A DNA stretch of 12,964 nucleotides from a virus. The stretch lies in UHGV virus genome UHGV-0179208. One strand, written 5' to 3'. Positions within the stretch are counted from its first letter, which is position 1. Each line of letters opens with the position of its first letter. The notes beneath the pieces were generated by a model that had not been told where the DNA came from, ran no database searches, and worked only from the letters and a program-made list of their open reading frames with translations. Both the position numbers and the translations under genes were made by a program. Shown here one piece after another: positions 3,439-12,916 of the stretch.

Positions 3439-4758
3439 TCATACGTAAAACACATCATAACGACCACGAGTGACACCAACATAAAGAAGCTGCTGAGCTA
3501 ATTCAGCATCTGCATAATGAATACAAGGCGTATAGATGAAAGCACGGTCTACAGACATACCCTGAGCTTTATGGAATGTTGACGCAGGAAGTGCTTTCAC
3601 TTTACTAAACTGTGATTTAGCATCCCAAAAATCACTCCACGGAGCTTTTCCACCTTTATTCCAATTTTTGTAAGTTTCTGCCGTTTTACCTAAAAATAAG
3701 TTAAACTTATACAGCTCTTCATCAGATGAAATTATTTTAATCTTTTCACGATAATATTCATCATCGCCGTAAGTTTCTACTGTTAAATCCCAATGACGAA
3801 TTAGATATTCTCCAGAAACACCACGAGCTTTAACAAAGGTTGATGTATACTCTGCTTCTATAATACGAACTAATTGTCCGTTATTAAAAATAATTTCTGA
3901 CACAGGCTTTCCATCAATTTTATATGTTTTAATTAATGGTTCCTGCATTACAATAATTTCACCGACAATAAAATCTTTATCAGTTTCAAAAATCTTTTTA
4001 CGAATGATGCTATTTAACTTATCAACAGATTTATTCGTAAATGCCATTACGCGATTTTCAAACAAATCATCTAGTGATTTGACGATTGAAAAATAATTTA
4101 CCATAAAATCGCGTAAAGCGGTATCACCGGTAAATCCACGTACTCCATGACCGTCAACAACTTTATCATAAATCCACTTACCGTTACGAACGTCAGTAGC
4201 TACATCAATAATAGGAGCATTACTGCGTTTAACTTCAGTGAGTTCACACTGATAAAAGTCTTTGTGTGTAAAGAATGGACTGATATAAGCAGTGTTTTCT
4301 CCTGGGTCAACAGGTCTAATTTGCTTATTATCGCCTATTCCAATTATAGTACACCACGGCGGGATAGTTGAAAGCAGAATTTTAAATAGCTTTCTATCAT
4401 ACATTGATACTTCATCGCAGATTAATACCCTGCATTTAGCTAAATCCGGTACTTCTTTTTGTTCAAAAAGAACGTTTTCTTCATATGTTACTGGGTTAAT
4501 TTTGAGAATACTGTGAATAGTACTTGCTTCTTTCCCAGATAGTTTTGAAAGAATCTTTTTAGCTGCATGAGTAGGAGCTGCTAAAATAATACCAGTTTCA
4601 CCTGTAGATATTAGGGCTTCAATAATGAACTTAGTAAGAGTAGTCTTACCAGTACCAGCAGGTCCATTAATAGTTACATGATGTTTCTTTTCTTTAATAG
4701 CCCTCATAACGATGTTAAAGGCATTTTTCTGGCCTTCTGTCAAATCATCAAATGTCAT
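3439..4758 (-). CDS. dda: Dda, SF1B 5'->3' DNA helicase, 439 aa
   Basis: ORF track. Walker A GPAGTGKT, Walker B DEVSM; length and overall sequence agree with T4 Dda as I recall it. Confidence 0.93.
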   Translation of the reverse strand: MTFDDLTEGQKNAFNIVMRAIKEKKHHVTINGPAGTGKTTLTKFIIEALISTGETGIILAAPTHAAKKILSKLSGKEASTIHSILKINPVTYEENVLFEQKEVPDLAKCRVLICDEVSMYDRKLFKILLSTIPPWCTIIGIGDNKQIRPVDPGENTAYISPFFTHKDFYQCELTEVKRSNAPIIDVATDVRNGKWIYDKVVDGHGVRGFTGDTALRDFMVNYFSIVKSLDDLFENRVMAFTNKSVDKLNSIIRKKIFETDKDFIVGEIIVMQEPLIKTYKIDGKPVSEIIFNNGQLVRIIEAEYTSTFVKARGVSGEYLIRHWDLTVETYGDDEYYREKIKIISSDEELYKFNLFLGKTAETYKNWNKGGKAPWSDFWDAKSQFSKVKALPASTFHKAQGMSVDRAFIYTPCIHYADAELAQQLLYVGVTRGRYDVFYV

Positions 4759-5067: not shown

Positions 5068-5814
5068 TTATCCTCGGATAAGTTTAAAAATTGAACAATT
5101 TAGCGGGTATCCTCTTTTCAGTTTAAGTTTATCAATAAAAGACAAGTTTTGATACCGCTCTACACCTTGAATAATTTTATCACACATATCATATTGCATT
5201 TCTGCTTCTGACAACTTTTTCACAATTTTCCAATCCGAGCCTTTAAGAAGAACGTTCAGTTTAACAACTTCAGCGCCTTCTGCTATGCGAGAACCATCAA
5301 TACGAGCTTTAAGTGCTATAATCCTTAGCTTAATGTCAGAGGTCTGTTTTGATTTAGAAAGCTGAGAAATGTGTTCAATTCGATTTTCACGTTTTTTCTG
5401 TATAGCTTTAATTTGATTATAAGTCTTTTTGATTTTAGCCCATTTCTTTTCATCTAAATTTAGTTTATGAACTTTTTTCGCAGATGAACGACCAATTCGC
5501 AAAGCAAATAAATCACGCTTTTCAATCAACTCTTCTAAAGTATAATCAGAACGAAATGTATTATACTTTTTCTTTACTGCAATAACATTCCCTTTAATGT
5601 ATCCAATGTTATTATCAAAACGTTCTAATGATAATTTCTCTCCTTCAATACGATTATCAAAAGGTTCTCCCGAGTAAGCACAAACTTTTTGATCTAAAAT
5701 GTTCTTAATGTAATTGAAGTCTAAGTTAAAATCTTTAGAACGTCTTTTTGCAGATGCCTGAGTATGCTCTAAACGACGTTTAATTTTACGAATTTGGTTA
5801 TTAGACAGTTTCAT
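5068..5814 (-). CDS. srd-position protein, 248 aa (possible Srd-like regulator); contains a degenerate HNH-like segment
   Basis: ORF track. Position between dda.1 and modA matches T4 srd. Segment CAYSGEPF...LSLERFDNNIGYIKGNV resembles an HNH fold without the catalytic His. Very K/R-rich. Confidence 0.5.
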   Translation of the reverse strand: MKLSNNQIRKIKRRLEHTQASAKRRSKDFNLDFNYIKNILDQKVCAYSGEPFDNRIEGEKLSLERFDNNIGYIKGNVIAVKKKYNTFRSDYTLEELIEKRDLFALRIGRSSAKKVHKLNLDEKKWAKIKKTYNQIKAIQKKRENRIEHISQLSKSKQTSDIKLRIIALKARIDGSRIAEGAEVVKLNVLLKGSDWKIVKKLSEAEMQYDMCDKIIQGVERYQNLSFIDKLKLKRGYPLNCSIFKLIRG

Positions 5815-5843
5815 ATTTTCTCACGGACGGTTAACTTACTTAT

Positions 5844-5872
5844 ACTATATCATTTTTACTTCAGCTTGTAAA
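5844..5872 (-). promoter_or_regulatory. T4 early-type promoter (minus strand TTTACA-17-TGaTATAGT) upstream of the srd-position ORF
   Basis: Minus -10 TATAGT = plus 5844..5849 with TGA upstream; -35 TTTACA = plus 5867..5872; preceded by AAAGTTG (plus gtaaacaacttt, 5868..5879). Confidence 0.45.
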
Positions 5873-5884
5873 CAACTTTATGTA

Positions 5885-5912
5885 AAATGCTTTAAAACTT
5901 TCGTGGTATAAT
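5885..5912 (+). promoter_or_regulatory. plus-strand middle-promoter-like element (MotA box aaaTGCTTTA, 12-nt spacer, TGgTATAAT), antisense to modA
   Basis: Plus strand: TGCTTTA at 5888..5894 preceded by aaa; TATAAT at 5907..5912 preceded by tgg. Matches the T4 middle promoter arrangement. No plus-strand gene follows it. Confidence 0.35.
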
Positions 5913-5929
5913 GAATCTAAGTCCTTCCA

Positions 5930-6532
5930 TTATAGATTAAATCCTTCAAAATCAAGAGTATAGATAGTGTATGTTGAATACTTTTTATACTCATATCTAT
6001 CTGCAATTCTAAATACACTTCCAGCTGGTATCATTACTTCTTGTTCATCTGAAACTAATTCCATATTACGATAACGATGGCTATCCGGAAACTTAAAGTT
6101 TGGATTGTATTCTTTACAGCGTAGAGCTTTTATAGCATACTCCTGGAAATTGAATACCATAGGAGCTTTGAATTCAAAAATAACTTGTGTGTTATACTCT
6201 AAACCGGAAGCAAAATGTAGAGCTATATTTTTATCATATGAAGCTGATACGACTTAATCAAAAGTAATAATAACAATTCCTTCATTTAATATAAGTTTAG
6301 TCTCAACTGGAACACCTCTCCAAAGAGGTTTATCGTTTGGAACCAAACGAGATTTGATTATTTCATTTAACCAAGTATGGTCATCTGGTTTGTTGGTAAT
6401 ACAACGAATTAAAAGTTCAATTTCAGATAAATTAAACCCTTCAGAAAGCAATTCTTCACGAATAGAAGCACGCACCGATGCATCCATTGATTTTATTTTA
6501 AAATCTTTTAGTTGCATTACTGAGTATTTCAT
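5930..6532 (-). pseudogene. modA: modA-like ADP-ribosyltransferase, 200-codon frame interrupted by one in-frame TAA (codon 93)
   Basis: ORF-track ORFs 6254..6532 and 5930..6160 are in the same frame. Manual translation of 6161..6253 is open (VVSASYDKNIALHFASGLEYNTQVIFEFKAP). The only stop is TAA at 6254..6256. Motifs: LWRGV before the stop, VSAS just after, DEQEVMIP in the C-terminal part. Confidence 0.6.
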
Positions 6533-7152
6533 TCAACTACCTCAATATCATAAACTTTAAATGTTCCAAATGAATCGTGTAATTTTTCTTTTGAAATAGA
6601 AGTTATTTTATACTTTCCAATTGGAATCATCCATTCTTGTTCACGCACAATCATCATTAAGTTATCAGTACGCTCTGAATCTAATCCATCAGTATCTTCA
6701 TACGTGTACTTAAACTCAGTATTAGGAGAAGAAAGTATAATATCGCTGATATGGTCAGAATAATTAAAAGCTTTATTAGTTTTTAAACGAAGTATTATTT
6801 TAGTAAAATATTCAGCATAAGAAAAAGAACACGCTGTATGCAAACTAGTAGTAAATGAATCTACCCTGTTCGTTGAAAACACTTCTCCAACTTGTAAATC
6901 TTTAATAAGTTCTTTTGTCGATTTTGATATACCACGATATAGCTGATAAGGTGATTTAGTTAAATGCTTTTTAACGATTTTATTCAACTGCCGATGAAGA
7001 GCTTCATTCTTTTTGGCTTCCATACATTGCCAAAGAACAGACTGCTCAAAGTCAGTAAATTTTTCACAGACCTTTTTATACATATCATATTGAAAATCAA
7101 CGCTTTCAGCTTTTATAGATAACTGTTCAACATCTGCAGGATTAATAATCAT
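6529..7152 (-). CDS. modB: ModB-like mono-ADP-ribosyltransferase, 207 aa (R-S-E class)
   Basis: ORF track. Catalytic motifs LYRG (Arg), FTTSL (S-T-S), REQEWMIP (E-x-E); 207 aa; immediately upstream of the modA-like frame, as modB is in T4. Confidence 0.7.
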   Translation of the reverse strand: MIINPADVEQLSIKAESVDFQYDMYKKVCEKFTDFEQSVLWQCMEAKKNEALHRQLNKIVKKHLTKSPYQLYRGISKSTKELIKDLQVGEVFSTNRVDSFTTSLHTACSFSYAEYFTKIILRLKTNKAFNYSDHISDIILSSPNTEFKYTYEDTDGLDSERTDNLMMIVREQEWMIPIGKYKITSISKEKLHDSFGTFKVYDIEVVE

Positions 7153-7178
7153 GATAGCCTCCGTATACTTCAGAAGCT

Positions 7179-7207
7179 ATCATATCATCGTTAGAAAGGA
7201 AAGTAAA
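7179..7207 (-). promoter_or_regulatory. T4 early-type promoter (minus strand TTTACT-17-TGaTATGAT) upstream of modB
   Basis: Minus -10 TATGAT = plus 7179..7184 with TGA upstream; -35 TTTACT = plus 7202..7207; AAAAAGTTG upstream; GGAGG Shine-Dalgarno 5 nt before the modB ATG. Confidence 0.5.
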
Positions 7208-10969: not shown

Positions 10970-11620
10970 TTATTTTTCCTTTCTTATGAAGTTTTCTATC
11001 ATATGTCTATAGCAGATATTAGGATAACCTGCCTTGACAGCTATTTTATTAAATTTTGTGCGTTTAGGTCTATTATTATAAACCCATAATTCATAAAGCG
11101 CATCATAACTATTCCATATTTCTCCTCGCCTAGGATTTGGTAAACCATATCGAGGTGAATTTTTACCGCTAAATCTTCCTTTTCGGGCTTTACTCATATT
11201 AGCCTTGGCTTCATCGGATATAATTTTACCTTTATGAGCTAGACGCATTTTGGCTTTAGTTTCTTCTGGGGTCTTTTTGCCTTTAATCCATGACGGCTTG
11301 CCATATCTAGGATTATTTTCACCCGAGAAAAGAACGGAGTTTTGGATTTTAAGGGTTTCTATTAATCTACTTGTTAATTTAACACCTTTATTATATCGCA
11401 TTAAATTTACAGCATAATGCAATCCTCTCACATCTGGATATATTTTAGTTAATAATCTATGAGCTATAAAATGCTCACGCGCAGTTAACTCAACAAGATT
11501 GTTTTTGCCATCTGTTCCTCCCATACATCTAGGAATTATATGATGGCGTTCTTTATATCCGCCAAGATGCCGGCATTTAGCTTTTGTAATTAAAGCCGAG
11601 TAAATTTTTTGGTAATTCAC
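10970..11620 (-). CDS. HNH-family freestanding homing endonuclease, 216 aa, GTG start
   Basis: ORF track. HNH motif ERHHIIPRCMGGTDGKNNLVELTAREHFIAH; repeated NNPRYGK / KNSPRYGLP NUMOD-like modules; C-terminus paralogous to ORF 9624..10460. Start is GTG at 11620..11618 (in-frame stop at 11636..11638). Confidence 0.8.
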   Translation of the reverse strand: MNYQKIYSALITKAKCRHLGGYKERHHIIPRCMGGTDGKNNLVELTAREHFIAHRLLTKIYPDVRGLHYAVNLMRYNKGVKLTSRLIETLKIQNSVLFSGENNPRYGKPSWIKGKKTPEETKAKMRLAHKGKIISDEAKANMSKARKGRFSGKNSPRYGLPNPRRGEIWNSYDALYELWVYNNRPKRTKFNKIAVKAGYPNICYRHMIENFIRKEK

Positions 11621-11653
11621 ATATATCCTTTCAATTCATGGATTAGTAGATCA

Positions 11654-11680
11654 ATTATACAATAAATATATAAAGCAATA
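11654..11680 (-). promoter_or_regulatory. T4 middle (MotA-dependent) promoter candidate: MotA box tatTGCTTTA, 11-nt spacer, TATAAT
   Basis: Minus TGCTTTA = plus 11671..11677; minus TATAAT = plus 11654..11659. Lies 35-60 nt upstream of the GTG of the HNH gene and would also drive gene 56. Confidence 0.5.
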
Positions 11681-11690
11681 AGGAGGACAT

Positions 11691-11891
11691 ATGGTACAAA
11701 AATTAATGGCACTTGTTAATGCCATCAAAGGTAATAAAAAACGTATAGCTTTTACTATTTCTGCTATGATAGGAATTTTACTTTGGAATTTTGTTTTATC
11801 GCCAGTTGCTATTGCTCATGGCGTTAGTATTCCAGTAATTACTCTTGATACATTCGTAGATTTAGCATTTGCTTTAGTTGGGTTAATTTAA
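11691..11891 (+). CDS. plus-strand small hydrophobic protein, 66 aa (two predicted membrane-spanning segments)
   Basis: ORF track. Canonical AAGGAGG at 11680..11686, 4 nt before the ATG at 11691. Hydrophobic stretches IAFTISAMIGILLWNFVLSPVAIA and VITLDTFVDLAFALVGLI. Its stop overlaps the gene 61 stop on the other strand (TTTAAA, 11887..11892). Confidence 0.5.
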   Translation: MVQKLMALVNAIKGNKKRIAFTISAMIGILLWNFVLSPVAIAHGVSIPVITLDTFVDLAFALVGLI

Positions 11892-12916
11892 ATCTTAGCA
11901 TATTTAGATAGCCGCATTTTAGCCATCAACCCTTGGGCAATATTATTTTTCATATATTCCATAATTTGTTCAGGGGTTGCACCTTCCTTTCTAATCATAT
12001 CATTAACATCTTTTGATTTCCAGGGAGATTTATCCCAAAACATAACCCTTTCTCCTGCATCAACTAATTTAGTCATTCGCTTGATAGTGTCAGGATGACG
12101 AGGTTCATTATCTAAAACCCATACACGTCTATCTTTAAATGGAACAATTTCTAGGTCTAATTGACCGCCTGTAATAGCTATACCATTTTCAATAAAAAGC
12201 GAATCTATAGGTCCTTCTAGAACATATACATCACCGTCTTTAACCCGTTCAACACCATAGATTTTTGTTGCCTCAGGATAAGCTTTGATGGTGATATATT
12301 TTTGGGGAGCATCTTTCTTTAATGCACGTCCTTGAAAAGACTCAGCTTTTCCATTAGCATTATAAATTGGAATAACAAGACGAGGCTCAGGTATTTCCTT
12401 TTTATATGTTCCCGGTGCTATGCTATTAACTAATTTAGGCCATTCGGTTGTAAACCAAAGATATTTCCATTTATCCTTTGGAATACAACGAGCTTTTACA
12501 TATTTTATAATTGGATGGTCTTCCGCCAGTTTATCTAATCTAACACATGACGGAAGAGATTTAATTATTTTCTTCTCAGGCTGCTTAGGAAGTTCTTTAG
12601 GTTTTTCTACTGGACGACTTTTACCTTTTTCTTTTCTTATTTCAAAGATATACTCACGATATAAATCAGGTTCAAACTCCTTTAAATATATTCCGATTGG
12701 TGCATGATAGTTACAGTTATAACAATGAATGTTTCCTTCATTATTATCACCATAATACCATCCACGGGCTTTATTTTGGTCGGTTTTTGAATCTCCACAC
12801 ACTGGGCATCTAAACCGCAATTTAAAAGTTGAACTATTATTTACTTGTGTGAATTTAGGTAAATGAGCTAATGCACGATACGCAAACTCATTATCAATCC
12901 AAGCTATTGATGACAT
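11888..12916 (-). CDS. 61: DNA primase gp61, 342 aa (zinc ribbon plus TOPRIM)
   Basis: ORF track. Zinc ribbon CPVCGDSK...CYNCNYH; TOPRIM-like VLEGPIDSLF and VLDNEPR; 342 aa equals T4 gp61. Confidence 0.88.
   Translation of the reverse strand: MSSIAWIDNEFAYRALAHLPKFTQVNNSSTFKLRFRCPVCGDSKTDQNKARGWYYGDNNEGNIHCYNCNYHAPIGIYLKEFEPDLYREYIFEIRKEKGKSRPVEKPKELPKQPEKKIIKSLPSCVRLDKLAEDHPIIKYVKARCIPKDKWKYLWFTTEWPKLVNSIAPGTYKKEIPEPRLVIPIYNANGKAESFQGRALKKDAPQKYITIKAYPEATKIYGVERVKDGDVYVLEGPIDSLFIENGIAITGGQLDLEIVPFKDRRVWVLDNEPRHPDTIKRMTKLVDAGERVMFWDKSPWKSKDVNDMIRKEGATPEQIMEYMKNNIAQGLMAKMRLSKYAKI

Follow-up and report, generated by a model that had tools for sequence, protein, structure and literature searches.

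Middle transcription in bacteriophage T4 is a textbook case of sigma appropriation, and the site in the genome that best fits its promoter consensus lies on the opposite strand. The window analyzed here, a stretch of 12,964 nucleotides (UHGV virus genome UHGV-0179208), contains such a site in the spacer between srd and modA, where it points into the mod genes in antisense. This raises the question of whether the site is a genuine promoter and, if so, what a middle promoter that faces early genes might do.

Results

A middle-promoter sequence pointing into the mod genes

The window is a segment of a T4-type phage (Tequatrovirus); its positions 5400 to 6600 share 98.8% identity with phage wV7 and 97.4% with T4. 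Its minus-strand genes follow the order dda, dda.1, srd, modA, modB, mrh-family genes, soc, gene 56, and gene 61 (features around the element are listed in Table 1). As an earlier sequence-only reading of this DNA had stated, all neighbors of the element (dda, dda.1, srd, modA, and modB) lie on the minus strand, and modA is interrupted: it carries an in-frame stop at codon 93 (6254-6256), where T4 has lysine, and is otherwise full length. Judged from its reading frame, modA in this wV7-like lineage is either a pseudogene or a nonsense allele that can be suppressed; in the part that matches 5400 to 6600, wV7 records have two features annotated as ADP-ribosylase. Because the element is intact though modA has already been inactivated, modA alone cannot be its target. 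The window's phage presumably encodes MotA, as members of the genus do, wV7 and T4 being its closest relatives and Tequatrovirus members; motA itself would lie outside the window.

A T4 middle promoter is defined by a MotA box, a 12-bp-type spacing, a sigma70-type -10 element, and the lack of a -35 element (PMC2988021, PMC6755090), the modal distance from box to -10 in known middle promoters being 12 ± 1 (PMC2988021). The element fits this definition because it combines a box that matches (a/t)(a/t)(a/t)TGCTTtA perfectly, a 12-bp spacer, and a -10 that is both extended and consensus, with no -35: at 16 to 18 bp from the -10, the sigma70 hexamer TTGACA is matched at 0 to 2 of 6 positions. A sigma70 scan of the window did not have the site among its predictions. 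The sequence at 5885 to 5912 agrees with the aaaTGCTTTA and TGgTATAAT first read on the plus strand; of the original wording, “12 nt, then TGgTATAAT,” the spacing of 12 is correct, but TGg lies inside those 12 nucleotides (taken literally, the wording would give 15 nt). Beyond the hexamer, which sits in intergenic DNA (the 115-bp srd-modA spacer), the plus strand reads gaatctAAGTCC. From a 7-nt spacing, the start is predicted at A5919 (or A5920), A5919 being 11 nt before the modA stop codon.

Table 1. Features around the mod/srd element in the window
Feature	Position	Strand	Remarks
dda	3439-4758	-	
srd	5068-5814	-	T4 annotation over the 97.4%-identical match
srd early (sigma70) promoter	5844-5872	-	-35 TTTACA at 5872-5867; 17 nt; TG-extended -10 TATAGT at 5849-5844
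MotA box aaaTGCTTTA	5885-5894	+	Centered near -30; core TGCTTT invariant in 9 genera
12-nt spacer aaactttcgTGg	5895-5906	+	Last three bases (5904-5906) are the extended -10, TGn (TGg)
-10 hexamer TATAAT	5907-5912	+	Invariant in 9 genera and in all Tequatrovirus variants examined
Discriminator and initially transcribed sequence gaatctAAGTCCTTCCATTA (predicted)	5913-5932	+	Common to PuvsY and the T4 gene 3/gene 2 site
modA	5930-6532	-	First gene crossed in antisense from the element
modB	6529-7152	-	Second gene on the antisense path

Several other features of the window were recorded. The motif CTTACGGACGG lies at 5826 to 5836 and in the srd-leader DNA of T4, and it is also found in the srd leader in Mosigvirus and Dhakavirus; its Jiaodavirus copy falls within the middle-promoter spacer, and a 6-nt deletion affects the motif in the window and in Lv5cm. 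Upstream of modB on the minus strand, a 14-bp hairpin overlaps a TG-extended early promoter (7150-7184 and 7179-7207), and the two together look like a promoter-plus-stem-loop cassette. In the place of T4 dam, the minus strand encodes a homing-endonuclease-like open reading frame of 216 amino acids with a NUMOD3 motif (10970-11620), preceded at about 11640 to 11680 by a strong middle-promoter-like tattgcttta-11-TATAAT of 18.3 bits on the same strand.

Rank among T4 middle promoters

The exact pattern TGCTTTA-N12-TATAAT is expected 0.01 times per window and was observed once (it turned up in 1 of 200 shuffles). T4 has the same element, with one difference in the spacer (plus strand, 11863-11890; predicted start, 11897). 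In the whole 168.9-kb T4 genome, exact TGCTTTA-N11-13-TATAAT occurs at three places only, namely, the mod/srd site, a second plus-strand site (here, +76000), and the mapped promoter P45.2. The 58 mapped T4 middle promoters (Hinton 2010, Table 1) served as the training set for a weight matrix, with which we scored both strands of T4. The mod/srd site ranks first (22.4 bits), followed by +76000 (21.4 bits) and PuvsY (21.1 bits), and the next 16 sites are all mapped promoters on the minus strand. Below the two plus-strand outliers, the best remaining T4 site on that strand scores 15.4 bits. Per strand of a T4-sized genome, 0.01 sites of at least 20 bits are expected from 200 dinucleotide-Markov genomes, versus 2 observed on the plus strand of T4; the top score in the 200 random genomes was 20.3 bits. 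It had been proposed that the motif might be a chance match in AT-rich DNA; with an expectation of 0.01 both in the window and at 20 bits or more, a chance origin is excluded.

The second perfect plus-strand site lies between late genes 3 and 2 (T4 AF158101.6, 75963-75993; predicted start, 76000). Between the gene 3 start codon and the beginning of its box are 11 nt, the site points to genes 53 and 5 and to oriE, and its leader AAGTCCCTTCCATTC resembles the leaders of the mod/srd site and PuvsY. The site is kept in RB69 (NC_004928, 79256-79296), where it corresponds to “Pm:79256 +” of a hidden Markov model (HMM) list (Nolan et al. 2006); in the part of that report available to us (PMC1524935), we found neither a discussion nor an experimental test of this entry.

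Conservation across Tevenvirinae

The gene order ADP-ribosyltransferase, srd, dda.1, and dda is widely conserved. A search of IMG/VR with Srd gave 7 loci, 6 of them near-identical (97 to 100% to the query), and the comparison set consists of GenBank phage records. It comprised Tequatrovirus (the window, T4, JoYop, Lv5cm, phiD1, KIT03, and RB68), Mosigvirus (RB69, SF, and NBG1), and representatives of Dhakavirus, Kanagawavirus, Karamvirus, Gelderlandvirus, Winklervirus, Jiaodavirus, and Tegunavirus. In each of these MotA-encoding genera (9 of 9 examined), TGCTTT(A/T/C) followed after 12 to 13 nt by TATAAT is present in the mod/srd spacer, on the strand antisense to both genes. The sequence-only reading had named absence of the motif from relatives with the same gene arrangement as the observation that would speak against it; the motif was found in all nine genera, in antisense orientation. 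Within the mod-srd loci (2.5 to 4.2 kb each), the element is the best plus-strand match of the T4-trained matrix, with scores of 14.8 to 22.4 bits. The positive genera covered by our tblastn sample have MotA homologs, STML-198 itself among them, and Winklervirus LC53 has a MotA homolog (PMC10132071). The one Krischvirus locus examined has no such site (top score, 9.5 bits); the Krischvirus type phage RB49 is described as lacking motA and the middle-promoter consensus (PMC1524935).

Among the nine genus representatives, pairwise identity is 0.91 in the box core, 0.30 (about random) in the spacer, and 1.00 in the -10 hexamer; it is 0.61 from -6 to +4 and falls to 0.36 from +5 to +14. By its distribution along the alignment, the conservation pattern is a promoter footprint and not a generally conserved block, and the comparison demonstrates purifying selection on exactly the bases that define the promoter. 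Within Tequatrovirus, the element changes only in the spacer or at the tolerated position of TGCTT(T/C)A, and the adjoining srd promoter and leader/untranslated region (UTR), which gather substitutions and indels, are less conserved than the element.

The same bases could in principle be kept as a minus-strand RNA element (in the modA 3' UTR or srd 5' UTR) and resemble a promoter by coincidence; in Karamvirus, Gelderlandvirus, Winklervirus, Jiaodavirus, and Tegunavirus, the complement of the element does lie in srd-leader DNA, 11 to 14 nt from the start codon. However, conservation coincides exactly with the box and the -10, and the 12 to 13 nt between them are free to vary; comparison with shuffled sequences gave no significant fold on either strand (z of -0.6 to -0.8; plus strand, -0.63); and the element region has no match in Rfam. 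PuvsY, moreover, has the cassette described below in the opposite genomic orientation, so that the constraint goes with the direction of the promoter rather than with the genome strand. Both chance and a minus-strand RNA element are effectively excluded.

Relation to PuvsY and to replication origins

PuvsY is an experimentally mapped, MotA-dependent promoter that serves both uvsY and oriF. From TGG to +14, which includes the first 14 predicted transcribed nucleotides, the element and PuvsY have the same base at 27 of 29 positions. A 51-nt element query finds three places per Tequatrovirus genome, and the three sites of T4 (mod/srd, +76000, and PuvsY) have in common TATAATG..TCTAAGTCC(C)(T/A)TCCA(T/A)T. 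The same type of leader is present at T4 +76000, at the RB69 gene 3/2 site 79256, at RB69 PuvsY, at the RB69 mod/srd site, and at the rnlB promoter of the Mosigvirus moha, where the cassette stands in sense orientation (predicted promoter, 703-760 of the locus). Because the same leader recurs at these other T4, RB69, and moha sites, the element is a member of a small family of promoter cassettes used at several loci. We read it as a paralog of the PuvsY-type cassette, kept between the mod gene(s) and srd throughout the MotA-encoding Tevenvirinae.

Two further observations concern these leaders. The consensus A(A/G)GTCC(N)(T/A)TCC(A/G)(A/T)T is common to a subset of strong middle promoters of T4, RB69, and moha. 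In RB69, the annotated uvsY (NC_004928, 117104-117598) is N-terminally extended and abuts gene 25, and its annotated 5' part contains a T4-like start (MKLEDL...) as well as a promoter of the PuvsY type; the annotated start is probably too far upstream.

The shared 27 positions suggest one alternative function. The element could be a component of an oriF-type origin, in which a short transcript would form an R-loop in A+T-rich downstream DNA and prime rightward leading-strand synthesis, as at PuvsY/oriF and P34i/oriG. Both oriF and oriG consist of a middle promoter and an unwinding element of no specific sequence, and the mechanism of oriA is poorly defined, a nearby MotA-dependent promoter being said to be involved (PMC3016281). 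The first 100 bp downstream of the element have an A+T content of about 71 to 73% and exceed about 91% of T4 50-bp windows in duplex instability, much as PuvsY does. ModA is toxic to Escherichia coli (PMC2988021), and fragments that bear the site may have escaped plasmid-based origin screens. At the sequence level, the middle-mode promoter that such an origin contains is present here. The site does not, however, coincide with a mapped origin: oriA was mapped near soc and gene 56 (T4 15.3 to 16.8 kb; annotated at 16763), that is, 3.4 to 4.9 kb from the site at 11.9 kb. Duplex instability does not discriminate, since ordinary promoters such as PnrdC.7 score higher, and the leader is not origin specific, given the ordinary sense expression of rnlB that the cassette is predicted to drive in Mosigvirus. 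We regard an origin function as quite unlikely.

A copy of the PuvsY-type cassette might also be silent in vivo, that is, nonproductive and retained by gene conversion or recent spread rather than by local selection. The discriminators of the three T4 sites (gaatct, gaatct, and gggtct) and of the three RB69 sites (ggtttt, ggttct, and ggtttt) are more alike within a genome than between genomes, a likeness that hints at concerted evolution. Some good consensus matches reportedly give no transcript in vivo or in vitro, as Stoskiene et al. are said to have found in 2007, and the mod/srd site could be one of these. The 2010 review table of 58 mapped T4 middle promoters includes the site's neighbors Pdex.2 (10058) and Pdda.1 (11138) but not the site itself (Hinton 2010). 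The inactive consensus-like sites documented in T4 are, however, GATT-box sites (PMC2988021), and the box here is of the GCTT type. The table places all 58 motifs on the minus strand, which also carries the prereplicative genes (Hinton 2010), and earlier mapping may have skipped the plus strand. The element occupies the same syntenic position in nine genera, with spacers unlike each other and unlike that of PuvsY; gene conversion is disfavored because it would homogenize the spacers, too. Retention of a silent copy is, in our judgment, improbable.

Possible antisense product and expression in motA-amber infection

On the plus strand downstream of the element, the only open reading frame is a 13-codon ATG frame that lacks a Shine-Dalgarno sequence, and a coding product was rejected on these grounds. 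No conserved intrinsic terminator was found on the plus strand across the 10 loci scanned; hairpins are present at +396 and +415 in T4-type phages, both with poor T-tails and both within the modA codons that specify KPLWRG. A discrete cis-antisense RNA like OOP RNA of phage lambda is not apparent here, the scanned loci offering neither a conserved terminator nor an RNA structure or Rfam family.

Published stranded RNA sequencing (RNA-seq) of T4 infection at 5 min (PMC6024815, Table S1) allows an indirect look at the mod genes, the motA-amber allele being leaky and the effect of the knockdown differing by promoter. The ratios of motA-amber to wild type were 0.88-fold for modA and 1.11-fold for modB, neither of them significant, 1.48-fold for srd (p about 0.001), 0.23-fold for dda.1, and 0.30-fold for dda, and 44% of early genes rose at least 2-fold in the experiment (PMC6024815). 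Because modA and modB stay near 1 while so many early genes rise, the data give no indication that mod mRNA is strongly silenced in a MotA-dependent way at 5 min, and the response of the target mRNA expected of an OOP-like antisense RNA was not seen for either gene with this leaky allele. Antisense silencing is thus weakened as a function of the element; promoter activity is not refuted, because the amber allele is leaky and the knockdown effect is promoter dependent.

Promoter arrangement at the mod-srd junction

In every locus, transcription from the element would enter the 3' end of the mod gene, 6 to 40 nt from its stop codon, and the arrangement relative to the srd early promoter differs between genera. 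In Tequatrovirus, Mosigvirus, Dhakavirus, and Kanagawavirus, the two promoters stand back to back, with predicted starts about 82 bp apart in the window. An overlap of the element with the srd early promoter had been claimed for the window; the core elements are separate, with 12 bp between the -35 and the box, and what overlaps the box is the upstream alpha-CTD/UP-element zone of the early promoter, as generally in Tequatrovirus. In Karamvirus ZX13, Gelderlandvirus STML-198, and Winklervirus Gravdalen, the promoters are face to face. Their predicted starts, on opposite strands, coincide to within one base pair, so that both open complexes cannot coexist in these three genera. In the mod-srd intergenic region of Jiaodavirus and Tegunavirus, we found no early promoter that fits the -35/-10 search pattern.

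These arrangements raise the possibility that occupancy is itself the function: MotA/AsiA-polymerase bound at the element would shut the srd early promoter by occlusion or competition, and the antisense transcript would be a by-product. Mutually exclusive open complexes in three genera, the position of the Tequatrovirus box in the UP-element zone, and the rise of srd upon MotA knockdown are all in its favor, although that rise lies within the general early-gene trend of the motA-amber data. However, Jiaodavirus and Tegunavirus keep the element where the search pattern detects no srd early promoter, and what the genera have in common is an orientation towards the mod gene rather than a fixed place with respect to the srd promoter. 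In addition, the full -10, discriminator, and start region are conserved, which implies productive initiation rather than mere binding. As a sole function, occupancy is unlikely.

Discussion

The proposal that the element is a genuine promoter of the MotA type gains support from the statistics, from homology to PuvsY, and from a phylogenetic footprint in nine genera. Taking these together, we consider it likely that the element is a genuine, active MotA/AsiA-dependent (sigma-appropriation) middle promoter. A role in a local switch or in transcriptional interference is a more tentative proposal, which we rate somewhat below even. The combined reading, in which an active middle promoter serves as an early-to-middle switch at the mod/srd junction, is the one that we slightly favor.

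Under this combined reading, RNA polymerase would be recruited to the box and the extended -10 as MotA and AsiA accumulate, and initiation at about A5919 would proceed rightward on the plus strand, antisense to modA and then to modB. The transcribing polymerase would run head-on into early-mode polymerases that pass modB and modA towards srd, dda.1, and dda. The purpose may be a local, MotA-triggered switch from early to middle transcription at the junction. There are three effects that could contribute to it: (i) occupation of DNA that the srd early promoter needs, (ii) collision with read-through early transcription, and (iii) an untranslated antisense RNA across the mod genes. That the element is active in vivo, that it starts at the predicted position, and that it works as a switch is what we infer here; the motif, its rarity, its homology to PuvsY, and the purifying selection on it are established by the comparisons above.

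The element has been kept through the whole history of the MotA-encoding Tevenvirinae, facing the mod genes, which encode toxic early ADP-ribosyltransferases. An active element would mean that MotA serves T4 not only to turn genes on but also to fire transcription against early units. Such activity would bear on how early transcription is brought to its end, at about 3 min, and it might bear on the sites of origin-proximal R-loops. A broader idea is that the mod/srd site and T4 +76000/RB69 +79256 represent a small conserved class of plus-strand “wrong-way” MotA promoters, which would act as head-on brakes that end early-mode transcription or would be the missing promoter parts of oriA and oriE. 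Both sites have the PuvsY/oriF core and the leader AAGTCC(N)TCCATT, and oriA and oriE lie 3 to 5 kb to the right of the two sites; we give this idea only a small chance of being correct.

The T4 entries AF158101.6, NC_000866.4, MT984581, and M30001 have no promoter feature at the site, and the literature that we searched for antisense or asRNA reports near modA and srd in T4 contained nothing relevant. A T4 differential RNA-seq (dRNA-seq) preprint puts the number of phage start sites at 150, 22 of which are antisense (bioRxiv 10.1101/2024.04.04.588121). Its “modA-modB transcript” was considered as a possible antisense RNA and rejected: the reverse transcription primer has plus-strand sequence (T4 13092-13118) and targets the sense mRNA. 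One precedent is the RB69 ortholog, which was HMM-predicted as “Pm:12081 +” with a score of 7.9 (Additional file 4 of Nolan et al. 2006, PMC1524935). This is a direct ortholog, with aaaTGCTTTA-13-TATAAT between srd and modA on the plus strand (12081-12122), but it is a low-score list entry, for which we found no discussion, test, conservation analysis, or mention of the antisense geometry in the available part of that report. What is new is a deeply conserved plus-strand element that opposes early genes in antisense and is missing from the list of mapped T4 promoters; the class of promoter itself is known.

Three known systems invite comparison. In phage lambda, the promoter of OOP RNA lies just past the 3' end of a regulatory gene and directs transcription back into that gene, on a course convergent with that of the main early transcript. 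The mod/srd element has the same convergent geometry. Unlike OOP RNA, which is a short, terminated transcript made by unmodified host polymerase, the product of the mod/srd element is predicted to be activator dependent and lacks a conserved terminator, and the motA-amber data show no effect on mod mRNA.

PuvsY (start at T4 115371, minus strand) is similar in its MotA box, TGg-extended TATAAT, discriminator gaatct, and start region AAGTCC.TCCA.TA, and the matrix scores of the two are comparable. The box of PuvsY is TGCTTCA with a spacer of 13 nt, whereas that of the mod/srd element is TGCTTTA with 12 nt, and the spacer sequences are unrelated. PuvsY is codirectional with its own gene, uvsY, and with all prereplicative transcription, whereas the mod/srd element is antisense and has no gene downstream.

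In orientation, a precedent is P34i, which depends on MotA, lies within late gene 34, and gives a transcript antisense to that gene. P34i is the promoter of origin oriG, and no origin has been mapped at the mod/srd element. The two also differ in strand and in what they oppose in antisense: a late gene from the minus strand for P34i, and early genes from the plus strand for the mod/srd element.
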